A stretch of DNA of 64,000 nucleotides from an uncultured Dehalococcoidia bacterium (lineage in GTDB: Bacteria > Chloroflexota > Dehalococcoidia > Lucifugimonadales > UBA3495), in the NCBI GenBank assembly GCA_964502995.1, contig CAZCZB010000001.1, positions 45,854-109,853 of the forward strand, read 5' to 3'. Below, piece after piece: positions 5,012-59,122 of this stretch. The translations under genes and the position numbers were made by a program. Every line of letters starts with the position of its first letter. Positions within the stretch are counted from its first letter, which is position 1. The notes beneath the pieces were generated by a model. That model was not told the DNA's origin. It did not search any database and saw nothing but the letters and a program-made list of their open reading frames with translations.

Positions 5012-7480
5012 CTAGGTCACCAACTTGTCCCCCAAATGCCCCCGCAAAGAATCTGTGGCATCTTGAGCGTCCCACTTCAAACGAATAATTTTCTCCACGT
5101 CGTCGCTGATATGGGACACCTCATTGCGGTCGTCATGAACAGGTAACACTAGATCTCGCCACCGGTCTGCGAGATTGGGCAGAGTGGTGTCGGTAAATAC
5201 GTGCCCGCTCATTTGCGCCTGGACGAACTCTGAAGACAGCAACGCCAGCAAGTAAAACGGAGTGATGCCATGCCGGTTTTGAACATTGACGACTCGTATG
5301 GTCAGCAGTTCCCGAGTTAGCAGGACATTTTTGTCCCTGCTGGATGCCATTGCCACGGTTCCTATCCTGTAGCTTCCACGCCTCACCATGATGATGTCGC
5401 CTTCTTCCGGTAGGCGCTTGTTTTTGGTCATTCTGCAGAACGTATCAATAGGCACCAAGGACACCGGATTGCGGTACATCTCCCAATTCACGATGTCCTT
5501 CACCCGAATGTAGGGGATAGTCCCTTGTCCCTTAGCAGTCGCGGGCGGAGACCCGTGACCATCCCAGCACTGGATGACTCCTTTTTCTTCCAGTTGCCCC
5601 AAGGTGATCCCGGTCCGACCTGTCGGGACATTGACTGGTCGGGCTTTTTTCGAGAGGTAGTACGACGGAACCAACGCGTTGCGGTCAACGTCAGAGTAAG
5701 GGACCGTAAACGTGAACTGGTTACCAGGGTCACCCGGGTTGTGAAGTTCGCCCTTGACGACGGCGATGTCATCCCATATCTCGGCTGTTCCAGTCCTGTA
5801 CAAAGTTTTGCCGTTATGGTCATGCCCCATCTCTTCTGGCACTGCCATGACGATGGTGTCTTGCTGAGGCACGCCTTTCTCCAGCACCAACAGGCAGGTC
5901 TTGGCATTGCAGTAGGGCCGGAACGTGTTGTGTGGTAGCTGGACAACCGCTTTGAGGTTGTTGTTTTTCATAATGAATTGGCGGAGGTAGCCGAGCTGCT
6001 GACCGTGAAGCACTGTTTCAGGCAACACGATTGCCAGCGTACCTTCGTCCAGTAGCATGTCCAAGCATCGCTCAACGAACAGAACGTAAGGGTCTCGGGC
6101 GATTACCGACCGGGTCATCTGGTATTCACCACTCTGCTTTTCCAACTTCCACTTGTGCCCGAGTTCGAAATTCGCACAATCAGACGTGAGGACCTTAGTC
6201 TTTGTCCCAAATGGCGGGTTTGTCAGCACGAAGTTGAACCGCCGGAAATTGTTTCCAACGACGAACTTGGCTTTGGCTGGGTCCGTGAAATGATCAGCCT
6301 CGTGTAGCGAATTGTCGTGGACGACGTTGCTTTTGCCGTCGCCGGCAATGGACATGTGCGCTTTCGCGATTTTCACGAGATCCGATTCTTTGTCGATCCC
6401 GAACAAGGTACGTGCCGCCATGGATTTCTTGATACCTTCGAGTTGGGCTGAGCCCTTGTACCTAGGATCCTGATCCATTTCCCGCCAAATATGGTGCATC
6501 GCCTGAATGAGAAATCCACCAGACCCACAAGCTGGATCACATACCGTCTCGTTAGGTTTAGGTGCAGCGATCTCGACAGCCAACTCCACTACGTTCCTTG
6601 GCGTAAAGAATTCTCCTTTTTCGCCAACGAGACGCGACTCAGCGAAAACTTCAAAAGCGTCCCCCACAACATCGGTATCAGTGGACAGCAGGCTGCCTCT
6701 CTCGAGTTGACCCACGACCCAAGCGGTCGAACGTGCGTCCAGCGTGACTGTATCACCCTCCAGGAACACTCCGTCGCTCTGCAGGTCCTCCTTCACGCGT
6801 TCGAACAGACCGTCGATTCTCTGTTTTACATCTTCGGGGTCCTCACCAAACTGGACGCGAAAATCTGGCGGAAGACTCAAAAAACTCTTCTCATCTTCGA
6901 TCTTGCAAAAGATCAATTTGATCATTTCAGCGCCGAGCTTTTCGCGGCGACTGATGTTCGTGTTCGCATACAGATTATTCAGGATGCGGCGAAAAGCAGT
7001 GATGAGGTCGGCACGCTGGAATGGTGCCAACTCCGACTTTTTGATACGTCCAATGTCAGCAATCGTTTGTCCACGGGCAGGGATGTTGTAAAGGGAACCT
7101 TCCAACACCGCATTCTGGCTGACGTCCTTGAACAGGTACTCAATGTCGTTCCCGTTCGTCCAGACTGCCCAGACGGCCGATGTGGCGGTCATATACGATT
7201 TGAGCTGAGCTATCCCGTCGTCCCGCTCTGGCCTTTTGGTTTCGACAATTCCCCACACGTCCCGGGCAGGGTCACGCCCCGAGGCTGGCCTGTAGACCAC
7301 GATGTCAGCCTTGTCGGCGAAATAGCCTGATCCACGAGGAATCTGCACCTCAATGTCCAGTTCGCTCTTGCGATAGCCATAACTCTCGATCAGCACGCGC
7401 TCGTAATCTTGGCGCACCCGTTCTTCAGGCTTCGACAGGTCAATGGACTTGCCCGTCGCAAAGTCTTTCGATTTCGCCAT
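5012..7480 (-). CDS. single-chain type IIG-like restriction-modification enzyme (PD-(D/E)xK HSDR_N-like nuclease + N6-adenine methylase + target-recognition region)
   Basis: Motif I DPACGSGGFL and motif IV LTNPPFG. N-terminus YGYRKSELDIEVQIPRGSGYFADKADIVVY...GIVETKRP resembles the type I R-subunit N-terminal nuclease fold. Start placed at ATG 7480 (MAKSKDF); the track ORF extends to 7666. Confidence 0.8.
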   Translation of the reverse strand: MAKSKDFATGKSIDLSKPEERVRQDYERVLIESYGYRKSELDIEVQIPRGSGYFADKADIVVYRPASGRDPARDVWGIVETKRPERDDGIAQLKSYMTATSAVWAVWTNGNDIEYLFKDVSQNAVLEGSLYNIPARGQTIADIGRIKKSELAPFQRADLITAFRRILNNLYANTNISRREKLGAEMIKLIFCKIEDEKSFLSLPPDFRVQFGEDPEDVKQRIDGLFERVKEDLQSDGVFLEGDTVTLDARSTAWVVGQLERGSLLSTDTDVVGDAFEVFAESRLVGEKGEFFTPRNVVELAVEIAAPKPNETVCDPACGSGGFLIQAMHHIWREMDQDPRYKGSAQLEGIKKSMAARTLFGIDKESDLVKIAKAHMSIAGDGKSNVVHDNSLHEADHFTDPAKAKFVVGNNFRRFNFVLTNPPFGTKTKVLTSDCANFELGHKWKLEKQSGEYQMTRSVIARDPYVLFVERCLDMLLDEGTLAIVLPETVLHGQQLGYLRQFIMKNNNLKAVVQLPHNTFRPYCNAKTCLLVLEKGVPQQDTIVMAVPEEMGHDHNGKTLYRTGTAEIWDDIAVVKGELHNPGDPGNQFTFTVPYSDVDRNALVPSYYLSKKARPVNVPTGRTGITLGQLEEKGVIQCWDGHGSPPATAKGQGTIPYIRVKDIVNWEMYRNPVSLVPIDTFCRMTKNKRLPEEGDIIMVRRGSYRIGTVAMASSRDKNVLLTRELLTIRVVNVQNRHGITPFYLLALLSSEFVQAQMSGHVFTDTTLPNLADRWRDLVLPVHDDRNEVSHISDDVEKIIRLKWDAQDATDSLRGHLGDKLVT

Positions 7481-7686
7481 GATGCCACCCCCAACGCCGT
7501 CGACGTCGACAGCTCGTGGTTTCGCAGCAAGACCGAACCGCCTGCAGGCGCTGACAGTCCGTACCATGCGATGTGATGTTATCACAAAACTCTCGGCCCT
7601 TTGATGCAGACGAACGCTCCTACCGGGGTAGCGGGAGAAACAATAGAGTTCGTCCTCGTCGGCCAATCGGCGTTAATGTGCTTCAC

Positions 7687-9174
7687 CTACGCCGCCTGTT
7701 GAGCGGCGTTGAGTTCGTGGAGCACCAGCGCCGCCACGACGCCCGGCTCAACGCTCTGCTCTTCCCGACGCTTGGAACCTTTGGCAGGCGGCATCCTGAT
7801 CCTCATGTGCCGCATGTGGACGTAGTCGTCGGCCTTCAGGTGGGCCAGCGCCGTGGCCAAGTAGGTCAGCGTCGCCATCGCCACGTGCAGCGACACCTTC
7901 TGGATGTTCAGGTAGCGGTGGGTGTCCAGCAGCCTGCTGTGCTTGGCACTGCTGAAGTGCCGCTCGATGATCGGCCGCTTCTTGTACTCGGCCTTCCATT
8001 CGTCCGAACAGCGGGGCAGCAGGCCCACAATCCGCAACAGCCGACCCTCGGTCTTCTCGTAGTGGGCGTAATCGCAATGCCTCGTAAACTGCACGCTGTC
8101 CTTCAGGTGGCAACCCTCGGCGGGACACCCGAACAGGTGCCCCTGCTCTGGATCAGTCTCGACGTACTCCATGGACTTACCGCCCACGCAGGTCGGCCGG
8201 CCATCAGCGTCATAAATGCCGTCGTACCGCCGCTCGCCGGTTTCCTTGTCCTTCTCGGGCAGCCGGACCGCGATCACTGGCATCATGCCCACGTCGATGA
8301 CGTGCCGGATGTTGTCCAATTTGTCGTAGCCCTTGTCGCCCAGGAAGTAGTGCGGCCTCAGTTCGGGGTACAGGACCAAGCAGTCATCAAGGTCCTCGAC
8401 CATCACCGCCACGTCGCTGGCGTTGGCTGGACGGGTCCTGGCGAACATCGGCAATCCGTAGTTGGAGTCTGCGACGACATCAATCGAGTAGCCGAAGTAC
8501 AGCTCGTCCTTGCTGTCCTTCTGGCCCGACTCCGCGCTGTCGCCTTTGGGCTTGGACTTGCTCTTCTTGGAATTGCGGCCTTTGCGTCCCTTGCTGGAGC
8601 GGGCATTCTTGGCGGTGCGGTGTCCCCACTTGGCGTCCGTATCCTTGGACGGTATCTCGTCACCCGTCTTCCGGCTCTTGCGACTTGGCCGTGCCCACGC
8701 CTCAACGTCGGTGCTGTCGATGACCAGCGAGTGTCCCAGCGGCGGCTTATCGGCAGGGACGATGCCGGCTTCGCGCAGCCGTTCGATCTCGCCTCGGCAT
8801 TCAAGGAACACTTCGGCGATGATGGGATCGAAGGTGTCTCGATGCGCGGCCAGTTTCTTCTTGAATCGGCTGTAGGCCCCTTCACTGGGGGCGCATTCGA
8901 GGTCGCAGATGCCCAGCAGGCGGTCGTCGCTGCCCAAGCGGTTCAGGAAGCCGTTGGCGTAGCGCTCATTGAGCGCGAACTGCATCACGAAAGCAGCCAG
9001 CATGGGCAAAGCTGTGTAGCCTGGGTTTCCGCCGCGCTCGTGGGGCGCGTCCAAGGTCTCCGCCAGAGGGCCGGCACGGGATACTACACCCCCAACCACG
9101 CCTTCGAGGAAGCCGTAGCCGCTCTTGGGGGGTTGTTTAGGTAATGGTGTATGCTTAAAATAGCAGTCGCCCAC
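7687..9174 (-). CDS. IS4/IS5-superfamily DDE transposase (DUF772-like N-terminus)
   Basis: 495 aa. GNPGYTALPMLAAFVMQFALNERYANGFL resembles the DUF772 N-terminus. FLGDKGYD and YKKRPIIERHFSSAKH give the Y-2-R-3-E-6-K signature. I could not define the IS ends by eye. Confidence 0.85.
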   Translation of the reverse strand: MGDCYFKHTPLPKQPPKSGYGFLEGVVGGVVSRAGPLAETLDAPHERGGNPGYTALPMLAAFVMQFALNERYANGFLNRLGSDDRLLGICDLECAPSEGAYSRFKKKLAAHRDTFDPIIAEVFLECRGEIERLREAGIVPADKPPLGHSLVIDSTDVEAWARPSRKSRKTGDEIPSKDTDAKWGHRTAKNARSSKGRKGRNSKKSKSKPKGDSAESGQKDSKDELYFGYSIDVVADSNYGLPMFARTRPANASDVAVMVEDLDDCLVLYPELRPHYFLGDKGYDKLDNIRHVIDVGMMPVIAVRLPEKDKETGERRYDGIYDADGRPTCVGGKSMEYVETDPEQGHLFGCPAEGCHLKDSVQFTRHCDYAHYEKTEGRLLRIVGLLPRCSDEWKAEYKKRPIIERHFSSAKHSRLLDTHRYLNIQKVSLHVAMATLTYLATALAHLKADDYVHMRHMRIRMPPAKGSKRREEQSVEPGVVAALVLHELNAAQQAA

Positions 9175-9683
9175 AACGATTTTTCTCGGTCCGCGGGGGC
9201 ACCAGGCCGCTTGGTTTGTGAGAGATCCAAGCGGTCAAAATTATGTTCTATTTTGACTGGTGACATTATACCCGGAGGCCCTTCCTGCCTCAACCGAAAA
9301 CAGGGGGTTCGGGCCGTTTTTGAGTACAAAAAGTGCTCATTTCGAGCAGGGTAGGGCGATTGCGCAACGGCCCGGCCGGGCGTTCCTAGGGCGCAGTTAA
9401 GGCCCCGAGTGCACCCTGATTTTTGCCCCAGCGAAAAATGGATGCCCCAGGGCGTCCGTAGACGGCCCGTATTGGCCGTTCCGGGATTCCATGCGGTATT
9501 ATTCGACGGAGTCGGAAAAATCGCTCAGGGGCCGGATATGGCGATTTTCGGGGGCATTTTCGACGGTGCGCCCGGGGCGATTTCGGGACGCCGGCAGGGG
9601 CCGGCAATCAGCGGTTACCCGGAAAAATCGGGTCTGTGGCGGATTACGAAAAGCGTCGCTTCGCTGGATGATATACGTCCCGG

Positions 9684-9803
9684 TCAGCTCGGGGGCGGAG
9701 TAGCGAAATTTCCTCTGAACGGGTTGAACTTCTTGACCAGCCTGGTGGCCTCGTGGCCGCAGCGGTGAAGCACGACCGTGCTGGCTTGGCTTTTGGTGGT
9801 CAT
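9684..9803 (-). CDS. short ORF (39 codons) behind hammerhead-b leader; possibly the 5' remnant of a disrupted gene
   Basis: My translation: MTTKSQASTVVLHRCGHEATRLVKKFNPFRGNFATPPPS*. Good SD (GCAAGGAGAGAGACC AUG). Followed by ~500 nt with no convincing ORF. Confidence 0.3.
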   Translation of the reverse strand: MTTKSQASTVVLHRCGHEATRLVKKFNPFRGNFATPPPS

Positions 9804-9835
9804 GGTCTCTCTCCTTGCAGGGTTGGTGTAGGTAT

Positions 9836-9891
9836 CCCGCGACGGCCCGTAGGTTGGGGCCGTTTCGCCGTCTCACGGCTCATCAGGCAGG
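9836..9891 (-). ncRNA. hammerhead ribozyme, type I (copy b)
   Basis: CCUGC CUGAUGA GCCGU-GAG-ACGGC GAA A-CGGCCC-CAACCUAC-GGGCCG-U C^GCGGG. Predicted cleavage between 9841 and 9840. Confidence 0.85.
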
Positions 9892-10092
9892 CTGGTTCTC
9901 GGAGTTTGCCAAGCAGTCTTCGCAGTTCACCATGTAGCCTGCCGAGCTGTAGACCACGTAGTGCTCTCCCGCCATAGTGGACTGGCCCATGGCATAGTGG
10001 CGGGTCGTGACCTCGGCCAAACAGGCGGGCCGGGAGCTACCAACGCACTCTGTCAAATGGAAGGTAGCGCGCTTCTCGAACTTCTCAAACAT
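9883..10092 (-). CDS. small Cys-containing hypothetical protein
   Basis: 69 aa ending ...SENQPA, with its UGA being core nucleotides U4-G5-A6 of hammerhead b. SD AAGGAGAGAGACC before ATG 10092. Confidence 0.55.
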   Translation of the reverse strand: MFEKFEKRATFHLTECVGSSRPACLAEVTTRHYAMGQSTMAGEHYVVYSSAGYMVNCEDCLANSENQPA

Positions 10093-10134
10093 GGTCTCTC
10101 TCCTTGCCTTGTGAACTAGCGTTCTGATACGATA

Positions 10135-10162
10135 ACGATAGCAGACCGACCAGTGGTGTAAA
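10135..10162 (-). promoter_or_regulatory. candidate promoter TTTACA-N16-TATCGT (TGC extended -10)
   Basis: Minus strand: CCCCTTTACACCACTGGTCGGTCTGCTATCGT. Nearly identical copy at 18145-18172. Confidence 0.4.
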
Positions 10163-10367
10163 GGGGTTTGCGGAAAATGCGAACCGTGGCATTGGGACGC
10201 CGGCCAGCGAGCGCATCGGACGCCCTGGGCTGCTACGGCGGTAAGACCGTCTGCAAAAAAACCAGTTCAGGATAGGTAGGAAGCGGGGGTTCTGTAACAT
10301 TTGCGGGGTAGTTCCCTGTTCTAAAAACTCGTGCTGGGATTTGGCGGTTTTAGAACGCTACCCCCCC

Positions 10368-10397
10368 TTGACAGGGTGTATCCGTAGGGTGTATCCT
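10368..10397 (+). promoter_or_regulatory. candidate promoter TTGACA-N18-TATCCT overlapped by a tandem direct repeat GGGTGTATCC x2
   Basis: TTGACA at 10368-10373 and TATCCT at 10392-10397. The spacer and -10 consist of GGGTGTATCC-gta-GGGTGTATCC. Confidence 0.45.
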
Positions 10398-10427
10398 ATG
10401 GGTACATCAAAAACGGAGGAACCCAAA

Positions 10428-10928
10428 ATGGCCACCACCGTCAACGGCTACGAGATAAAACCTGGCGCAGACCTGCGCCATGCGTGCCTGACCGGCGCGG
10501 ACCTGTACCGCGCGGACCTGTACCGCGCGGACCTGTACCGCGCGAACTTGCGCGGCGCGGACCTGATCGGCGCAGACCTGCGCCATGCGTGCCTGACCGG
10601 CGCGGACCTGTACGGCGCGGACCTGTACCGCGCGACCCTGCGCCATGCGGACCTGTACGGCGCGAACTTGCGCGGCGCGAACCTGTACGGCGCGAACCTG
10701 TACGGCGCGAACCTGACCTGCGCGGACCTGATCGGCGCGGACCTGCGCCGTGCGTGCACCGGCGCGAACCTGCGCCATGCGGACCTGACCGGCGCGGACC
10801 TGCGCCGCGCGGACCTGTACGGCGCGGACCTGACCGGCGCGGACCTGACCGGCGCGAACCTGTACCGCGCGGACCTGTACGGCGCGACCCTGCCCTCTGG
10901 ATGGCACGCAGTCAGCTGCTGGTACTGA
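10428..10928 (+). CDS. pentapeptide-repeat protein
   Basis: 166 aa from ATG 10428 (RBS GGAGGA). Nearly the whole length is A(D/N)L(Y/R/I/T)(G/R/C) pentads (ADLYR ADLYR ANLRG ADLIG...). Built from near-identical 15-nt DNA units. Confidence 0.85.
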   Translation: MATTVNGYEIKPGADLRHACLTGADLYRADLYRADLYRANLRGADLIGADLRHACLTGADLYGADLYRATLRHADLYGANLRGANLYGANLYGANLTCADLIGADLRRACTGANLRHADLTGADLRRADLYGADLTGADLTGANLYRADLYGATLPSGWHAVSCWY

Positions 10929-10932
10929 TGCG

Positions 10933-11106
10933 ATGCCCCCCTACGCCGATCCCGCTGACCGCCGCGCATTCGAGCGGTTGCGCGCAGAGCGTCGCCGCAA
11001 CGCCGGCCTCTGCGCCAACTGCAACAGCAAGGCCGAACCTGGCCACTCACGCTGCGCCAAGTGCGCGGAACGCCGCAAGAACCGCTTGACTACCCCGCAA
11101 ATGTAA
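10933..11106 (+). CDS. small zinc-ribbon-like protein (57 aa)
   Basis: Below the track cutoff. My translation: MPPYADPADRRAFERLRAERRRNAGLCANCNSKAEPGHSRCAKCAERRKNRLTTPQM*. Has CxxC...CxxC. Its stop lies inside IR-R of the cassette. Confidence 0.45.
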   Translation: MPPYADPADRRAFERLRAERRRNAGLCANCNSKAEPGHSRCAKCAERRKNRLTTPQM

Positions 11107-11330
11107 CAGAACCGAAGCGGGACTTCCATAAATCCTGCGTGTGCGGCCTTGTGGCAAAAATCGCCAGTCCGAACCGTTCGAGAAAAACCGCTCCAGGATG
11201 GTAAAGGGGCGATGCGGCGAAACCCTCGCGTGTGCAGCCTTGTGGCCTGTGTGCGCCGCCTTGCGAAATTGCCTTAGAGCGGCGCCGAACGGAGCTTGTT
11301 GGGCCGGAGCGTGGGGGACGGCGAGACAAC

Positions 11331-11368
11331 AAAAAAAGGCCGGGGCAGGGTTCAACCCTGCCCCGGCC
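11331..11368 (-). terminator. rho-independent terminator (minus strand)
   Basis: Perfect 13-bp stem GGCCGGGGCAGGG/CCCTGCCCCGGCC with a 5-nt loop. An A7 run on the plus side gives U7 after the hairpin on the minus strand, downstream of the 11403..11924 gene. Confidence 0.7.
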
Positions 11369-11402
11369 TCGGGATCCCTTTTCGGTGATGGAGGTAGGCG
11401 CT

Positions 11403-11924
11403 TCAGACCACCGTTTCGTCATTCGCCAACAGTTGCCGGTCTTTAATCACAATTGGCCCGGCGTAGCCAGACTCCAGAAATCTCTGCACCTGTTCTGGGC
11501 TCGGCGGTCGCTCCCCCCGCCGCTGCGCCCAGAAATCACCATTGGCTACGAGGTAGTCGCCAAGTTCCTCAAGTGTCGGGAAAGGCGGCGAGACCGGCGT
11601 GCCTTCGCTTATGGTTTCATACACCTGATACCAGGTCGGTGCCTCCGCGAAGGGCGGCCGGTAGTCCTCTTTCATGGGAGGTCCACCATCGTACTCCCAG
11701 TATTCCATGTGCCGAGTCTCATCGCTCAGGTCTGGGTGGTCCCCGGTCTCCCACTGGCGGAAGTTCTCCTTCCACGTGTGGCTTGCTTCCTCGAAGCATT
11801 CGTCGAACAACGGCTTGTAGTGGCCCATCCAATCCTTACTGATTCGATTGCCGGTGGGCGGGTCATCCTCGGTGTAGCGCGGATGCTCCCAGTTTGGCGG
11901 CACTCGCCTGATCTCTCTGCCCAT
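11403..11924 (-). CDS. hypothetical phage protein
   Basis: 173 aa (MGREIRRVPPNWEHPRYTEDD...). Followed by a strong terminator. Confidence 0.65.
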   Translation of the reverse strand: MGREIRRVPPNWEHPRYTEDDPPTGNRISKDWMGHYKPLFDECFEEASHTWKENFRQWETGDHPDLSDETRHMEYWEYDGGPPMKEDYRPPFAEAPTWYQVYETISEGTPVSPPFPTLEELGDYLVANGDFWAQRRGERPPSPEQVQRFLESGYAGPIVIKDRQLLANDETVV

Positions 11925-11952
11925 GATATTCCTCCAATCGTCATTAGCGAAT

Positions 11953-12315
11953 CTACTTGTCCGGGTGTTCAGCGGCAGGAGGCCGGCCAGGGCGTCCCCT
12001 GATGCGTTCGATTGGCGTGGGGATCGCCCATTTCTTGCCGATCTTCCTGGCCCCCACGATTCGCCCGCTCCAACAGAGCTGGATCACACGTTTCGTCGTG
12101 ACGCCCAGTTCGGCGGCGGCCTCTTCCACAGTCACGTGGTTTTTCTCCCAAGGGGCCTTGGGTTCGATGTTGAACGGATCTGGAATTGCCCAGGTAGCAC
12201 CCATCTTGAACGCGCCCCTTATGCGGCCTTCCCTGCACATTTGGCTGATCCAGCTGATGTGGCAGCCTTCCCGCTCCGCGGCTTGCCGAACGCTGATGTA
12301 TGGGGCTGGCGGCAT
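11953..12315 (-). CDS. tandem excisionase/MerR-type helix-turn-helix DNA-binding protein
   Basis: Two repeats of the HTH_17-like pattern: ISVRQAAEREGCHISWISQMCREGRIRGAFKMGATWAIP and VTVEEAAAELGVTTKRVIQLCWSGRIVGARKIGKKWAIP. Confidence 0.7.
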   Translation of the reverse strand: MPPAPYISVRQAAEREGCHISWISQMCREGRIRGAFKMGATWAIPDPFNIEPKAPWEKNHVTVEEAAAELGVTTKRVIQLCWSGRIVGARKIGKKWAIPTPIERIRGRPGRPPAAEHPDK

Positions 12316-12324
12316 GTCAGTCCG

Positions 12325-13602
12325 CTATTCCAAACCTGGCCTAATCTGCGTTATCTGACCTAATCTCTCGATTGGCGATCCACAGGCAGGCACAGTGTTG
12401 GTTGACGCTTCACCGACCACCGCCGGCGTAGCCGGACTTACACAGTCTCCACGTCCTGACACCGGGAAGCTCGAACCCGGCCATTGTTCCAAATTCAGCG
12501 CGGCGTTCGCGTCACGCTCGACCAGCGCACCACATCCGCCGCAATACCACTGCCGATCAGAGAGCGTCATCTCTGCGTTGTGCCATCCGCAGTGAGCGCA
12601 CAGCCTGGACGAAGGGAACCATCGATCCGCCTTCTCAAAGTGGGCGCCGTACCAGGCGCACTTGTACTCCAGTTTGACCAGGAACCCGGCCATCCCAGCA
12701 TCGGCGATGGCCCGCGCCAGTCGCCGGTTCCGCATCATGCCAGCCACGTTCAGCGTCTCCACCACCACCCGGCCCGCCGACTTGGCTATCGCCGTCGTCG
12801 CCTTGTGGTGGTTGTCATTCCGAACGTTGACTATCCTGGCGTGCAGCCGCCGTCGTTTCGCGTACAGACACTCGCGCCGGTTGGAGCGATTGCTCTTGCC
12901 GTGGACGTTCCGGCTGCGGGCGATGGCTTTGTCAAGCCGGCGCAACTGCTTGAGGCCGCTGGCCAGCGCCTTTGGATTGGCCACCCTGGTACCGTCCGAG
13001 CACTCGGCCATCGTACCAACGCCGACATCGACACCGGTGGTCCGTCCATCCTTGACCGGCGGCGGTTGTTCACCGTCCTCGATGCAGAACGCGGCGAACC
13101 ACGTCCCCGCCGTGCGATTGATCGTTACCTCGCGGATCGAGCCGGGAAAGCGCAGAGCCTCCACCATGTCCACCCGGCCTATCTTCGGGAGGACCACCGC
13201 CTTGCCGTCCACGCGCACGGTGTCGGGACCGTTGTCGGCTCGGAATCCTTGTTCGTGCCGCCGCCGCTTGAAACGCGGGAACCCAACGCGCCGTCCTGGG
13301 CGCTGGCCAGCCTTCACCGCCTTGCGGTACGCCCCCCAACCCGCCGCGGCCTGGCCGAAGTCGATGATGGCGTATTTCGCAGCGTTCTGAGACAGCGGCG
13401 CGGACCATGGGGCGATCATCCCCTTGACCTTGTTCCAACGCGGCCGCAACGTGCGCTCGGACAGCCACTCGCCAACGTCCAGTCCAGCCTTGAACTCGCC
13501 CACCGCCCAGTTGTAGGCGAACCTGGCATAGCCGGCGTGCTGAGCCAGGACGGACTCCTGCTCCCGCGTAGGCTTCAACGCTATCCGGTGTGCTCGCTTC
13601 AT
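12325..13602 (-). CDS. tnpB: TnpB (OrfB) RNA-guided-endonuclease-type transposon protein
   Basis: 425 aa. N-terminal MKRAHRIALKPTREQESVLAQHAGYARFAYNWAV and a C-terminal zinc ribbon CAHCGWHN...WYCGGCGALVERDANAALNL. Confidence 0.9.
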   Translation of the reverse strand: MKRAHRIALKPTREQESVLAQHAGYARFAYNWAVGEFKAGLDVGEWLSERTLRPRWNKVKGMIAPWSAPLSQNAAKYAIIDFGQAAAGWGAYRKAVKAGQRPGRRVGFPRFKRRRHEQGFRADNGPDTVRVDGKAVVLPKIGRVDMVEALRFPGSIREVTINRTAGTWFAAFCIEDGEQPPPVKDGRTTGVDVGVGTMAECSDGTRVANPKALASGLKQLRRLDKAIARSRNVHGKSNRSNRRECLYAKRRRLHARIVNVRNDNHHKATTAIAKSAGRVVVETLNVAGMMRNRRLARAIADAGMAGFLVKLEYKCAWYGAHFEKADRWFPSSRLCAHCGWHNAEMTLSDRQWYCGGCGALVERDANAALNLEQWPGSSFPVSGRGDCVSPATPAVVGEASTNTVPACGSPIERLGQITQIRPGLE

Positions 13603-13605
13603 GGC

Positions 13606-14262
13606 CTATCCGATCAGCGACAGTTGCCGCGCCGTCTCCACCACAGTCTGATCTCCATCGTTGGCCAGCGCGTCCAGCAGTTTCTTGCTCTTGTGGCTGC
13701 GACTGCCGTACAACTTCGCCGAAAACACGGTGATGATCTCCAGCACGTCCTGCGCCAACTCTTCCTCAAAACTCGGCTGCTCGCCTTGATGGATGATGAC
13801 GATCTCGATACCTTGCAGCTCGCACAACGTGAACACCAGTTCAGCGCCGAACCGCAACAGCCGGTCCTTGTGCGTGATTACCAGCCGCTCCGTCCGCCGG
13901 CGCAGGATCAACTCCAGCAACTCCTGGAGTCCTTTCTTGCGGTAGTTCATACCGCTGCCGAGGTCGCGGATCACCTGGGTGCGCCATCCTTTCGTCGCGC
14001 AGTAGGCCTCTAGCGCGGCGTGCTGGCGATCCAGATCCGCCTTCTGGTCCGGGCTGGATACTCGCGAATAGCAAATGGTCAGCGGTTCCGCCGGGTCGCT
14101 CCGGTAGCCGAGCAGGTCCGCGACGGCGTAGTAGCGAGTGCCGCCCTGCGTTTTGCGCGTCGGCATCAATTCGCCGGTGGACTCCCACTTCCGCAACTGT
14201 CCCGGTGTGGTCCCGAGCATTCTCGCCGCTTCGCCTATCTTGACCAGTCTGGCATCGTTCAT
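13606..14262 (-). CDS. tnpA: IS607-type serine recombinase transposase
   Basis: 218 aa. MerR-like HTH (VKIGEAARMLGTTPGQLRKWESTGEL) followed by the resolvase catalytic motif ICYSRVSSPDQKADLDRQ. Confidence 0.9.
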   Translation of the reverse strand: MNDARLVKIGEAARMLGTTPGQLRKWESTGELMPTRKTQGGTRYYAVADLLGYRSDPAEPLTICYSRVSSPDQKADLDRQHAALEAYCATKGWRTQVIRDLGSGMNYRKKGLQELLELILRRRTERLVITHKDRLLRFGAELVFTLCELQGIEIVIIHQGEQPSFEEELAQDVLEIITVFSAKLYGSRSHKSKKLLDALANDGDQTVVETARQLSLIG

Positions 14263-17850: not shown

Positions 17851-18102
17851 CTAGTTCTCGGTCGTCTTCAAGGTGCCGTCGGCGTTGAGTTCCTCGGCAA
17901 AAACGTGGCCAGCGCTGAAAGACTCCCAAGTCCGTGGAACTGTCATCGGGGGAAGTGGCACGTCGTTATGCAGGGTTGCGGGGCAGTAGCGGCAGATCAT
18001 GTCAATGGGGTCGCCGTTGCGGTCGCGGGGAGAATCGGGCGCGGCGGTGAAGGAATGCCGACCCCTTTCCTCAAAGTATTCGCAGATGATGGTGGCGTCC
18101 AT
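17851..18102 (-). CDS. small hypothetical protein (83 aa)
   Basis: Start at ATG 18102 (MDATIICEYFEERG; RBS GGCAAGGAG). The UAG stop lies just before hammerhead c. Confidence 0.55.
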   Translation of the reverse strand: MDATIICEYFEERGRHSFTAAPDSPRDRNGDPIDMICRYCPATLHNDVPLPPMTVPRTWESFSAGHVFAEELNADGTLKTTEN

Positions 18103-18144
18103 GTTCCTACTCCTTGCCTTGTGAACTAGCGTTCTGATACGATA

Positions 18145-18172
18145 ACGATAGCAGGCCGACCGGTGGTGTAAA
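18145..18172 (-). promoter_or_regulatory. candidate promoter TTTACA-N16-TATCGT (copy of 10135-10162)
   Basis: Region 18111-18180 is ~97% identical to 10101-10170 (2 mismatches by eye). Confidence 0.4.
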
Positions 18173-18226
18173 GGGGTTTGGCGGGGAGTTGCGGAAATTC
18201 CTGAAAATGCGAACCTTGGCAATAAG

Positions 18227-22409: not shown

Positions 22410-22466
22410 TTCGGGTTCCTCCTTCGTGTGACACCGGGCTTTCGTGGCAACCTTTCTTATACCGAT

Positions 22467-22495
22467 ATTCTAGCAAATCTAGGAGTAAAAGTAAA
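22467..22495 (-). promoter_or_regulatory. candidate promoter TTTACT-N17-TAGAAT (TGC extended -10)
   Basis: Minus strand: CCCTTTACTTTTACTCCTAGATTTGCTAGAATATCGG. Best sigma70-like match among the repeated modules. Confidence 0.5.
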
Positions 22496-22644
22496 GGGAT
22501 TTAGCCGCGAGATTTCGGAATTGCCGAAGATGCGAACCGTGGCAATATCGCGGTCGGCATCTAGGCCGGACGCCGGCACCCATGGACCGCGCCGAAGGGA
22601 CTTTCAAAAAAAGGCCGGTCAAGATAGGTAGGAAGCGAGCTATC

Positions 22645-22666
22645 AAAAAAGGCTGCGTGTGCAGCC
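22645..22666 (-). terminator. rho-independent terminator (minus strand)
   Basis: GGCTGC-gtgt-GCAGCC stem-loop preceded by A6 on the plus strand, which gives U6 after the hairpin on the minus strand. Downstream of the 22790..23236 gene. Confidence 0.55.
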
Positions 22667-22789
22667 TTGTGACATGGTCTTGGAGCGGCGCCGAACGGCG
22701 TTGGCGGCTCCCGAACGCCTCACACGCCAATGGCGACGGTTAGACGTTTCCGATGCAGGCGGTCAGGGCATGACTATTCCGCGGCGCTG

Positions 22790-51928: not shown

Positions 51929-52405
51929 TTGACGACAAGGGAGACTACTTTGAAAACTAGGACCACTTTGCTTGCCGCCTTTGCGGTGGTCGTCGCCATC
52001 GTTGGGGCGTGGTTCTCTGCCGGCGCGAGCGTCTCCGCGCACCAGCCTGACGTTTATCAGATTGATCAGAGCAATGCACCTGATCCCCCCTGCACCTTCT
52101 ACCACGACGATGCCTGTGAAATCGCCGCTACCCCAGGAAGTTTGACTATCTCTGAGTCGAACTGGGCCGGGCAATCCCATGGACTCGATACCCAACTCAG
52201 CGCCGCGCAAGCGCACTTTCAGAACCTTACCGGCTTCGCCGAACTAAAGGGGCAGGTGAACGACCACATCGTGCCAAGCGTCACCCGCTTACTTGTCGCA
52301 AGCGGCGGGACCGATACTTCGAGCGGAGATGTGAGCTACGCCATAACCTCAGACATCACCGGCCTGCCGTGGATCGCGGAGGCGGAGTACCAGGTACTGC
52401 CTTAG
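51929..52405 (+). CDS. secreted hypothetical protein
   Basis: 158 aa. Signal-like TLLAAFAVVVAIVGAWFSAGASVSA. Confidence 0.5.
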   Translation: MTTRETTLKTRTTLLAAFAVVVAIVGAWFSAGASVSAHQPDVYQIDQSNAPDPPCTFYHDDACEIAATPGSLTISESNWAGQSHGLDTQLSAAQAHFQNLTGFAELKGQVNDHIVPSVTRLLVASGGTDTSSGDVSYAITSDITGLPWIAEAEYQVLP

Positions 52406-52425
52406 GTCAGACCGACATCAACCCC

Positions 52426-53553
52426 ATGGCCGGCCAGATAACACAACGCAAGCCCGGCGTCTGGAAGCTCGTCGTCAACCTCGGCCGCGATACCCAGGGC
52501 ATCCGCCGGCGCCGCGCCTTCACCGTTCACGGCACCCGCCGCGACGCCGAGCGACGCCTGCGTGAAATCCTGACCGACCTTGACCGCGGCGTCGCTCCGC
52601 CGGAACACATCACCTTGGCCGAGTGGCTCGACCGTTGGATGCGGGAGGTCATCGTCCCTCAGCGGAGTGTGGCCACCGCCGAGCGGTACGAGGGCATCAT
52701 CCGCAAGTACATTGGCCCAGCCCTCGGCCATCACGAATTGGCCCGACTATCGCCCCTGCGGATCAAGCGGTTCCAGGACGAGATGCTCGATGACGGCCTG
52801 TCGCCCTCGTCAGTGGGCCTGATGCACATCATCATTTCGGGGGCCTACCGCTACGCCATGATGCTGGAGGTAGTCCAGCGCAACCCCGCGTCGGCGGTGC
52901 CGGGCCCACCCCGCGTTCGGGGCGCAATCGACGTACCCGAGGTCGAATACGTTCAGGCGATGCTGGACCTGGCCGAACGCGAAAAGCACCTGTTGTTCCC
53001 CATGATCCACGCCATCGCCTACACCGGAATGCGCCGGGGCGAGGCCATCGCGCTGACGTGGGACGACGTCGACCTGGACAACGGCTATTTGGAGATAACC
53101 CGTTCGGCGGGCTGGCGACGGGCCGGGCTGGTCATCTCGTCGCCCAAGACTGCCGCCGGCGCCCGCATGGTGGACCTGGACCCGAGGACGATTGAGGTGC
53201 TGCTGGACCACCGGAAGTGGCAGGCCGCTTACATCGCGGACCATGCCGGCTACTACGACAACCGGGGCATATTGTTCGCTGACGAAAAAGGCGGCTATAT
53301 CAAGCCCAACCGGGTGTCGCGGACTATTGGGGACCTTGGTCGGAAGGTCGGCCACCCCCGAATGACGACCCACTCCCTGCGCCACTTCCACGTGACGATG
53401 CTGTTGCAATCGGGGTTCCACGAGGCCATCGTCGCCCAGCGCGCCGGCCACGCCAATTCCTCAATCACCCGGACGGTGTACGCCCACGCACTGCCCGGCT
53501 GGCAACGCGAAGCGGCGGAAGCCTTCGGTAAGGCTATGGAGCGTGGAGCGTGA
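52426..53553 (+). CDS. int: tyrosine integrase
   Basis: Start at ATG 52426 (MAGQITQRKPGVWKLVVNLG). AYTGMRRGEAIALTWDDVD (Arg I), HSLRHFHVT (H-x-x-R) and RTVYAH (Tyr). Confidence 0.9.
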   Translation: MAGQITQRKPGVWKLVVNLGRDTQGIRRRRAFTVHGTRRDAERRLREILTDLDRGVAPPEHITLAEWLDRWMREVIVPQRSVATAERYEGIIRKYIGPALGHHELARLSPLRIKRFQDEMLDDGLSPSSVGLMHIIISGAYRYAMMLEVVQRNPASAVPGPPRVRGAIDVPEVEYVQAMLDLAEREKHLLFPMIHAIAYTGMRRGEAIALTWDDVDLDNGYLEITRSAGWRRAGLVISSPKTAAGARMVDLDPRTIEVLLDHRKWQAAYIADHAGYYDNRGILFADEKGGYIKPNRVSRTIGDLGRKVGHPRMTTHSLRHFHVTMLLQSGFHEAIVAQRAGHANSSITRTVYAHALPGWQREAAEAFGKAMERGA

Positions 53554-57862: not shown

Positions 57863-59122
57863 CTACGGCCTTGGTTCGTCGGGACGGGGCGCGCCGAAAA
57901 CCACGCCCTCGGATTCCAGATCGGTTATCTCCGCCGGCGACAACCCGGCCAGGTCGGCCAATATGGCCTCGTTGTCCTGCCCCAATCCCGCGACCTTTTC
58001 GATCGACATGGGATTGCCCGGGTCTCTAAACGGTCGCCCGGCGAAAATACGGGGCCCCACGGCAGGCGCTTGAGGGTTGGAAAACTCCCACATATAGCCG
58101 CGTTCCCGTAGATGAGAGTCGTTCGCCAGATCCTGTGCGGTCATCGCCGAACCGGCCGCGATGCCCAGTCCCTGCAACCTTTGAGCCAAGTCCAGGTCGT
58201 CGTGCTGGGAGGTCCAGTTGCCGATCGACTCGTCCAGTTCGTGGCGGTTGTGCCAGCGGGACAAAGCCGTGGCGAATTTGGCATCCTCGGCCCATTGCGG
58301 TCCGCCCATTGCTGCCTTCAGCGATCCCCATTCCGCATCGGACGACACGACGATTACTATCCAACGGTCGTCGCCCCTGGCCGGATACACATTGTGCGGC
58401 GCCTTCCACCAGTGGGCGCAGCCCAAACGATCGCGGGTGATCCCCCGCTGCGCCTCCAGGATGGCCGGTCCCACCGCCGAGACTCCCGTTTCCAGCATGG
58501 TGAGGTCAACCCGCAGGCCCTGGCCGGTTCTGGCGCGCTGGTACAGCGCCAGCAGCAGGGCGTAAGCCACGTTGTTGCCCACGGAATGGTCCATGTAGTT
58601 GGGGCTGGCACGCTGGGAGGGTCCCTCCTCGTAGCCGGTCAGGAAGGACAGACCGCACGCGGCGTCAACAGTCCGGGCACGGGAGCCGGCGCGCCGCCAG
58701 GGTCCGGTGTACCCGTATGCGGTGCTGCTTAGGGTGATGATACGGGGATTGACTGCGGAGAGACTTTCGTGGTCGAACCCGAACCGCTGCATGGTGCCGG
58801 GACGGAAGTTATCGGTCACGATGTCAGCCGTTTCCACCAGTTTGAGAAAGACTTCCTTGCCTCGCGGGTTCGTCACGTCCATGCACAGGCTGCGCTTGTT
58901 GCGAGCGCCGTAATAGACCATGTTGCCGGCTTCGTTCCACCACTCATCGCCGGGAACGCCCTCGGGAAAGGGGCCGGCTTTTCGGTCCTGCAGGTGGTCG
59001 GGGCTTTCGACGCGTATCACATCGGCGCCCAGATCAGCGAGGAACCCCGTCCCCCACGGCAGCGCATGCACCTGCTCCAGGGTCAGGACTCTAACGCCGT
59101 CGAGAATACCCTTCTCCGCCAT
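57863..59122 (-). CDS. family III CoA-transferase (CaiB/BaiF), paralog
   Basis: Start at ATG 59122 (RBS GGGAGG). VRVLTLEQVHALPWGTGFLADLGADVIRVESP. Confidence 0.85.
   Translation of the reverse strand: MAEKGILDGVRVLTLEQVHALPWGTGFLADLGADVIRVESPDHLQDRKAGPFPEGVPGDEWWNEAGNMVYYGARNKRSLCMDVTNPRGKEVFLKLVETADIVTDNFRPGTMQRFGFDHESLSAVNPRIITLSSTAYGYTGPWRRAGSRARTVDAACGLSFLTGYEEGPSQRASPNYMDHSVGNNVAYALLLALYQRARTGQGLRVDLTMLETGVSAVGPAILEAQRGITRDRLGCAHWWKAPHNVYPARGDDRWIVIVVSSDAEWGSLKAAMGGPQWAEDAKFATALSRWHNRHELDESIGNWTSQHDDLDLAQRLQGLGIAAGSAMTAQDLANDSHLRERGYMWEFSNPQAPAVGPRIFAGRPFRDPGNPMSIEKVAGLGQDNEAILADLAGLSPAEITDLESEGVVFGAPRPDEPRP

Follow-up and report, generated by a model that had tools for sequence, protein, structure and literature searches.

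A 64,000-nucleotide stretch of DNA from an uncultured Dehalococcoidia bacterium (contig CAZCZB010000001.1, positions 45,854 to 109,853 of the forward strand), hereafter the window, carries a pentapeptide-repeat gene within a short segment whose two ends are inverted copies of each other. The segment spans positions 10288-11113 of the window (826 bp). Its left terminal inverted repeat (TIR), GGTTCTGTAACATTTGCGGGGTAG(T), lies on the plus strand at 10288-10312, and its right TIR lies on the minus strand at 11089-11113; the 24-mer GGTTCTGTAACATTTGCGGGGTAG itself occupies 10288-10311, and its reverse complement is found with one mismatch (position 9: T, not A) at 11090-11113. An earlier note, made from the letters alone, had put the match between the arms at 23/24. 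This is exact on alignment, and a repeat finder extends the pair to 25 nt, 24/25 of which (96%) are complementary, with 776 nt between the arms. When up to three mismatches to the TIR are allowed, these two are the only matches in the 64-kb window, and none appears in 100 dinucleotide-preserving shuffles of it (0/100). Directly outside both arms stands the 8-bp target-site duplication that the earlier note had described: GAAGCGGG is present at 10280-10287 and again, abutting the right arm externally, at 11114-11121, the two copies being identical (8/8), while the chance of an exact 8-mer there is 4^-8. The mismatched base of the TIRs is the central one of a TGT-N-ACA palindrome (10293-10299 and 11102-11108), so that both arms read TGTAACA on the plus strand.

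Between the TIRs, the segment has the layout of a small transcription unit on the plus strand. A subterminal spacer (10313-10367), the fold of which is no different from shuffles (z-score 0.01), leads to a sigma-70-like promoter recognised by sequence, TTGACA-18-TATCCT (10368-10397), whose spacer and -10 are overlapped by two direct repeats AGGGTGTATCC (GTATCC-N7-GTATCC, 10373-10398). A ribosome-binding site GGAGG (10415-10419) is located 8 nt 5' of the ATG of the pentapeptide-repeat gene (10428-10928), which encodes a 166-aa protein of about 28 A(D/N)LxX repeats matching PF00805. It is followed by a 57-aa zinc-ribbon open reading frame (ORF) with a CxxC-N10-CxxC pattern and a weak match to DZR_2 (10933-11106), whose final six codons and TAA stop (11104-11106) come from the right TIR. 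The cargo is thus as the earlier note had read it, including its own promoter and the stop within the right TIR, and the ORF map is consistent with its remark that no other unit in this region of the surrounding prophage is on the plus strand. Its statement that the segment has no transposase also holds, since none is detected by Pfam and PHROG scans of both ORFs, and tblastn with an IS6 transposase as query finds no match in the window. As for its description as a rarely annotated, cargo-carrying element resembling a miniature inverted-repeat transposable element (MITE), the cargo and the lack of a transposase stand, but the comparison with MITEs does not: these are usually shorter than about 0.5 kb and non-coding, whereas the segment has 826 bp, two conserved ORFs and a promoter. 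Moreover, the kind already has a name, mobile insertion cassette (MIC), and precedents with pentapeptide-repeat cargo.

The site that received the segment can be reconstructed from related units in the window. The region is intergenic, between the intrinsic terminator of a 173-aa gene (11336-11370, minus strand) and the promoter-like site of a 69-aa gene, recognised by sequence (TTTACA-16-TATCGT, 10162-10135, minus strand). Here, a motif search finds the two halves of an interrupted unit, U1, the proximal half (caggataggtaggaagcggg) at 10268-10287 and the distal half (...cctgcgtgtgcggccttgtgg) at 11122-11154, followed by an uninterrupted tandem copy, U2, at 11194-11245; a further uninterrupted paralogous unit is found at 22620-22672. 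In the window, GATAGGTAGGAAGCG occurs only at 10271 and 22623, and GCGTGTGCRGCCTTGTG occurs at 11137, 11228 and 22655. Therefore, a unit of the form caggatRggta....gcg-N-gcgtgtgcRgccttgtg is present three times, once split and twice intact. If the segment has duplicated its target, removal of the segment together with exactly one copy of GAAGCGGG should restore the spacing of the unit. This is what is observed, the spacer between the two motifs of reconstructed U1 being 17 nt, as in the unit at 22.6 kb (the spacer is 16 nt in U2). The joined flanks with one repeat copy align with 22623-22672 free of gaps and with 40/50 identical positions, the inner 15 nt matching at only 7/15. The earlier note had presented the 22.6-kb unit as an empty site. 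Its colinearity and shared 17-nt spacing are borne out, but the 22.6-kb site is a diverged paralogue, not an orthologous empty site; the note had also recognised the unit as one paralogous copy of a regulatory module while missing the second, tandem copy at 11194-11245. On the minus strand, the 22620-22672 unit forms a hairpin like that of a terminator, AAGGCTGC-ACAC-GCAGCCTT, with a run of T after it.

The same ends are found around other genes in other genomes. A scan for the exact end (20 specified bases) in one genome per species, covering 185,579 species, yields five loci in four Dehalococcoidia metagenome-assembled genomes (MAGs), the paired ends among them being the same 24-mer as the left TIR of the window. 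In the first locus (L006, 4303-5253), perfect 24-bp ends bound 951 bp that encode a 109-aa ORF and a 154-aa lipoprotein-like ORF; this element sits just after dnaA, with flanks GGCGCAGC and GGCGCGGC. In the same genome, an 810-bp cassette with perfect 24-bp ends (L007, 185-994; flanks GTTTTAGC and GTTTCAGC) encodes a 234-aa protein with a C-terminal membrane segment, and a second genome has the same element at the orthologous position (L008, 4527-5336). The two remaining loci have single ends only: the right end in L005 lies at a contig edge, while that in L009 cuts the 3' end of a HigA-like helix-turn-helix (HTH) gene and is preceded by a gene for a 171-aa membrane protein. The sequence common to the different cassettes is limited to the 24 bp of the ends. 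No transposase or recombinase is encoded in the 8-kb loci of the Dehalococcoidia cassettes, whose neighbours are housekeeping genes (obg, nadD-like, peptidases and a metallo-beta-lactamase-type hydrolase). The database search proposed by the earlier note does return further cassettes, in Dehalococcoidia MAGs, although not the autonomous partner that it had hoped for. Elsewhere, the exact end has no match in a viral scan and matches a single contig (L010) in a metagenome scan, a blastn search of plasmids with the TIR returns nothing relevant, and a literature search for the TIR sequence returns unrelated primer matches only. In L009 (3768-4067; 3773-3829), the left end of the cassette is missing, and the target gene contains GGTTCTG 9 nt from the insertion point, a sequence that resembles the tip of the element itself.

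The L007 and L008 cassettes are identical over their entire length (810/810), while the flanking DNA beyond +28 bp on one side differs by about 3%. The tract of complete identity (L007 1-1022 against the reverse complement of L008) extends past the cassette by 184 bp at one end and by 28 bp at the other, with about 3-5% difference in the DNA further out. This contrast between identical cassette and diverged flanks suggests recent acquisition, exchange or a recombination tract.

Part of the cargo in the window has homologues elsewhere. In a search of 5.8 billion proteins, the zinc-ribbon ORF has one homologue (P0277, 78% identical, E = 1e-16). It is encoded on the 2.5-kb metagenomic contig L027, where a series of small ORFs all point in the same direction. 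The differences between the two genes are distributed over the three codon positions as 8/6/16 and all four cysteines are kept (4/4), and the zinc-ribbon ORF is therefore a real gene. The start of the same contig matches the promoter region of the cassette, with TTGACA, a pair of GTATCC repeats separated by 7 nt, ACGGAGGAACCC-AAATG and first codons that resemble those of the cassette, and it keeps the ribosome-binding site. Homology begins 56 nt inside the left TIR, at the very start of L027, and stops about 10-20 nt short of the right TIR. Between the two homologous stretches stands the pentapeptide-repeat gene, which has no counterpart in L027; L027 itself has no TIR. With promoter and zinc-ribbon gene homologous to one operon, nearly from edge to edge, the cargo looks like a captured transcription unit.

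We conclude that the segment 10288-11113 is very probably a non-autonomous DNA transposon of the MIC type, inserted with an 8-bp target duplication. Its two-ended structure, the duplication, the lack of a transposase, the recurrence of the ends with unrelated cargo, the colinear restored target and the promoter-ribosome-binding site-gene layout are all directly observed. Because the same 24-bp ends frame unrelated genes elsewhere, the cassette is real but ordinary in kind. By the mechanism that we propose, a transposase encoded elsewhere would bind the two 24-bp ends and act in trans, and the cassette would have been inserted into staggered cuts 8 bp apart in a target located in the regulatory DNA between two genes of an integrated phage-like element. 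With an IS6-like enzyme, movement would proceed through a cointegrate, which recombination between the two copies of the cassette would then resolve (a mechanism described in PMC7986276). Transcription of the cargo would start at its own promoter and run toward the hairpin at 11336-11370, opposite to the prophage genes.

The ends themselves point to the IS6 family of insertion sequences (IS). Members of this family generate 8-bp duplications, are about 800 bp long and have inverted repeats (IRs) with a GG tip and the motifs cTGTt and caaa; those listed include two MITEs and one passenger-carrying element (tIS), ISDsp3 of Dehalococcoides sp. BAV1 (PMC7986276). The cassette has the 8-bp direct target repeat of the IS6/IS26 family, and its ends, GGTTCTGTA on the left and GGTTCTGTT on the right (written jointly, GGTTCTGTA/T-ACATTTGCGGGGTAG), have the IS6 tip, GG followed by CTGT(T/A) (GG-TT-CTGT-W-A). 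An annotated IS6-family element of the Clostridium botulinum plasmid p3BKT015925, whose transposase is N-terminally extended, has ends cGTTCTGTTAAGTTAT and GGTTCTGTTAATTAAT and an 8-bp duplication TTTAGGGT, and the first 10 nt of the cassette end are identical to its right end (IRR). Within the 675 kb of DNA compared, the 10-mer GGTTCTGT[TA]A is found only at the cassette ends and at this Clostridium IS6 end. In viral contigs, inverted repeats flanking IS6-type transposase genes read CTGTAAAG, so both T and A at position 9 occur beside IS6-type genes. Finally, no transposase other than an IS6-type one is seen close to any copy of the end. L010 and L026, the latter from a Eubacteriales MAG, contain a TIR-like end with three mismatches; a 98-aa ORF lies 100 bp away from it, and a gene for a 390-aa transposase, which combines PF13610 (DDE_Tnp_IS240) with a SWIM-like zinc finger, about 500 bp away. 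Both of these ends carry the T variant at the base that is mismatched between the TIRs of the window.

Several points weigh against the reading of the segment as an inserted cassette moved in trans by an IS6-like enzyme. The IS6 motif caaa is absent from the ends, positions 10-16 of which read ACATTTG. No autonomous element with these ends was found in the searches of species genomes, metagenomes and plasmids, and neither the complete chromosome OZ241992.1 nor the 3.2-Mb contig CBDBDI010000003.1 contains a further exact copy of the 21-nt end. L010 was considered as the autonomous element and rejected, since Smith-Waterman alignment finds no second end, and its relatives, with transposases 97-98% identical, are without the end, similarity stopping about 116 bp before it. 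At the insertion site, no orthologous empty site was found. The databases searched contain no close relative of the prophage, and the homologue closest to the flanking 173-aa gene, located in co-directional phage gene blocks, is 53% identical and therefore too distant for a comparison of the site. Likewise, every short-read contig of the same strain that reaches the right junction is filled, and no insertion polymorphism is seen. Lastly, the flanking repeats of the Dehalococcoidia cassettes match at 7/8 despite perfect TIRs. As chance alone would give 7/8 at a fixed position with a probability of about 4e-4, these are nevertheless real, slightly imperfect duplications. Each pair (L006 4295-4302 and 5254-5261; L007 177-184 and 995-1002) differs by one transition, the mismatch being the same in L007 and L008; candidate causes are a later mutation, an error of gap repair or an assembly error. 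Weighing the matches to IS6 ends and duplications against the absent partner and the missing second end in L010, we rate it likely that the ends are IS6-like.

The 390-aa transposase deserves a separate comment. In L010 (1004-3102) and L011 (2770-4185), its gene is divergent from a small AbrB/SpoVT-like gene, and L011-L013, whose transposase gene is 75% identical to that of L010, lack IS6-like ends altogether. The transposase has over 1,000 homologues, in methanogens, Thermoplasmata and Eubacteriales, and the copies examined have no recognisable IS ends. This transposase may be domesticated, or it may be a variant with atypical ends.

Among the alternatives, the one that survives best keeps the MIC and changes only the family of its ends. 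Several IS families generate 8-bp duplications, and ISL3, IS1595 and IS256, which also have GG tips, would move the cassette by cut-and-paste or copy-paste transposition without cointegrates. Ends of this kind would fit with the missing caaa motif and with the fact that no IS6 transposase was found flanked by the TIRs. We nonetheless consider a non-IS6 origin unlikely, because the first 10 nt coincide with one end of an annotated IS6-family element that itself has an 8-bp duplication, the GG and CTGT(T/A) signature is that of the IS6 review (PMC7986276), and IS6-type is the only kind of transposase near any copy of the end.

It is less probable still, and in our view very unlikely, that the segment is the remnant of an autonomous IS with a passenger gene, which lost its transposase by deletion after insertion, so that the cassette as such never moved. 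One such element, ISDsp3, is on record in Dehalococcoides (PMC7986276), and L010 has the order transposase, small ORF, end. Against it, three independent cassettes (in the window, in L006 and in L007/L008), with different cargo, are all without a transposase and have perfect or near-perfect ends. In addition, homology to L027 extends from 56 nt inside the left TIR to within about 10-20 nt of the right one, interrupted by the pentapeptide-repeat gene, and no remnant of a transposase is present.

A promoter-bearing segment flipped in place by a site-specific recombinase, such as the serine recombinase encoded at 13606-14262, would also be bounded by inverted repeats, which in that case would serve as the sites of recombination. 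This recombinase gene is 2.5 kb away, the promoter reads outward, and Hin-type invertible segments are similar in length to the segment, at about 0.8 kb. However, the only serine recombinase nearby is the TnpA of an IS607-type TnpA-TnpB pair, and the flanking 8-bp direct repeat is a signature of transposition, not of inversion. Three short-read contigs of the strain cross the right junction, all in the same orientation (3/3), and none reaches the left junction, the contigs breaking within the pentapeptide repeats or within the triplicated promoter module. Moreover, the unrelated loci at which these ends recur have no recombinase within 8 kb. The recurrence of the ends and the restored target exclude in-place inversion, to which we therefore give next to no credence, and the distinction that the earlier note had left to be drawn falls on the side of insertion. 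The same two observations exclude chance matches in GC-rich, repeat-rich DNA. In favour of chance there is nothing beyond the many short repeats around the pentapeptide-repeat gene, and it is refuted by the shuffles and by the identical 24-mer being paired again in other genomes.

MICs are a known class, first described as MIC231 in Bacillus cereus, for which mobilisation in trans is reported to have been demonstrated (PMC3913671). Two later examples carry pentapeptide-repeat genes: mic-qnrS2 of Aeromonas (1,375 bp; 22-bp IRs with four mismatches; 5-bp duplication; PMC2600179) and mic-qnrD of Proteeae (1,519 bp; 24-bp IRs with six mismatches; 2-bp duplication; PMC3913671). Like these elements, the cassette consists of two IS-like IRs around one or more genes unrelated to transposition, with their own promoter, no transposase and a target duplication, and with a modular cargo that changes while the ends stay constant; in mic-qnrS2 and mic-qnrD, too, the cargo is a pentapeptide-repeat gene. 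It differs from the latter two in its near-perfect 24-bp ends and 8-bp duplication, and from these MICs in its Chloroflexota host, its prophage site and a pentapeptide-repeat protein that is not Qnr. The ends of MIC231 are those of IS231 (IS4 family), while the ends of the cassette look IS6-like, and MIC231 has been mobilised in trans while the cassette is known from sequence alone. With IS6/IS26 elements, the cassette shares the 8-bp duplication, a length of about 800 bp and the GG then CTGT(T/A) tip, and the family is known in Dehalococcoides with a passenger gene; in contrast to these elements, it has no transposase inside, no caaa motif and an IR of 24 bp versus 14-20 bp. No cargo-only cassette is listed for the IS6 family in PMC7986276, only the two MITEs and the one tIS.

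Since qnrS2 and qnrD are both on MICs, the kind of element was already known, pentapeptide-repeat cargo included, and no new class of system is opened here. What is new is a further member of this kind, a cargo-only cassette with probably IS6-like ends, in an under-studied phylum. It adds a well-supported example for Chloroflexota and Dehalococcoidia, in which mobile elements are poorly catalogued, and it illustrates how small accessory genes, in this case one for a pentapeptide-repeat protein of a type common in phages, can arrive together with their promoter in the regulatory region of a prophage. It also gives annotators a concrete 24-bp signature by which more cassettes and, through them, the missing transposase might be found.

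A broader idea, which we hold only tentatively and think rather doubtful, is that the 24-bp end pair defines a cassette-exchange system in Chloroflexota, in which small transcription units would be repeatedly packaged between IS6-like ends and moved by a transposase encoded elsewhere. Its cargo may include phage morons, membrane proteins and lipoprotein pairs, shuttled between chromosomes and phages. This would fit with the ends being the only shared sequence, with the 100% identity of two cassettes against 3% divergence of their flanks, and with cargo cut about 10-20 nt from the ends. If true, cassette exchange would parallel that of integron cassettes, but with a transposase as the driving enzyme and phages as the carriers.

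The pentapeptide-repeat protein belongs clearly to PF00805 (E = 4.8e-61; 202 bits versus a cut-off of 20.2). It shares the right-handed quadrilateral beta-helix family with Qnr, MfpA and AlbG, which have about 180-220 aa versus its 166 aa. Nevertheless, it scores far below the curated cut-offs of the NCBIfam families for Qnr (45.5 versus 240 bits) and MfpA (67 versus 360), and it also misses those for Alr5209 (114 versus 125) and HetL (103 versus 260). In the PDB, it is matched best by designed consensus repeat proteins and by pentapeptide-repeat proteins of cyanobacteria. PADLOC finds no match for any of the cargo proteins. Pentapeptide-repeat proteins of similar size are common in viral contigs (307 stretches), and none of 80 viral loci is bounded by the TIRs (0/80). 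By these comparisons the protein is to be taken as a generic member of its family. The anti-defence or gyrase-protection role proposed by the earlier note is purely inferential; judged from the fold only, the most likely general mode of action of the protein is that of a DNA-shaped beta-helix binding a DNA-binding enzyme. The gene has a GC content at third codon positions (GC3) of 0.92, and its repeats (10433-10922) form an array with a 15-bp period that includes runs of exact copies, such as GCGGACCTGTACCGC three times at 10493-10540. Because short-read contigs end inside this array, the number of repeats may be variable or mis-assembled. One repeat unit is 3 nt short (around 10757-10769), which breaks the pentapeptide register.

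As for the surroundings, the window is part of a 154-kb contig of a Chloroflexota MAG, and the cassette lies in a phage-type block of minus-strand genes that extends from about 0.5 to 48 kb and includes genes for a ParB-like protein, two large DNA methyltransferases, a sliding-clamp-like protein and a primase/helicase; an integrase gene follows at 52369-53553, and homologues of the flanking 173-aa gene lie in contigs with terminase and portal genes. The neighbourhood of the cassette is rich in other accessory genes. A gene for an 822-aa N6-methyltransferase of type IIG-like (restriction-like) character (5012-7480, minus strand) forms a patch of low GC content, 0.52-0.54 versus 0.61 for the window. 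Domain scans identify a 495-aa DDE_Tnp_1 (IS4/IS5-like) transposase (7687-9174, minus strand), for which no convincing terminal repeats are found in 6500-10300, and, on the minus strand, the IS607-type pair, consisting of TnpA, a serine recombinase with a MerR-type HTH (13606-14262), and a TnpB/Cas12f-like protein with OrfB_IS605 and TNB domains (12325-13602). This pair (12325-14262) is flanked by an HTH/excisionase-like gene (11953-12315) and a DUF3560 gene. With two IS elements, the cassette and the low-GC gene, the stretch from 5 to 14 kb is an accessory-gene hotspot of the prophage. The DDE_Tnp_1 gene and the IS607 pair were considered as partners of the cassette and rejected, as no relatives of either lie near the other cassettes. 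A megablast search of 9000-13700 against plasmids and phages gives no match, and, allowing up to seven mismatches, no TIR-like sequence exists elsewhere in the window apart from a chance match with seven mismatches at 59111.

The minus-strand genes of the prophage are served by a repeated promoter and 5'-untranslated region (5'-UTR) module, TTTACA-16-TATCGT ... gcaaggagagagaccATG, which precedes them in three copies (10093-10190, 18100-18220 and 22410-22545). A 9-11-nt motif, AGAACGCTA, located upstream of the cassette promoter (10347-10360), is also present, sense-strand, in the 5'-UTR modules (10117-10130); it could be a shared operator or a chance match. The first two copies of the module are nearly identical, and the 18-mer that contains its ribosome-binding site and start codon occurs again at 9801-9818.

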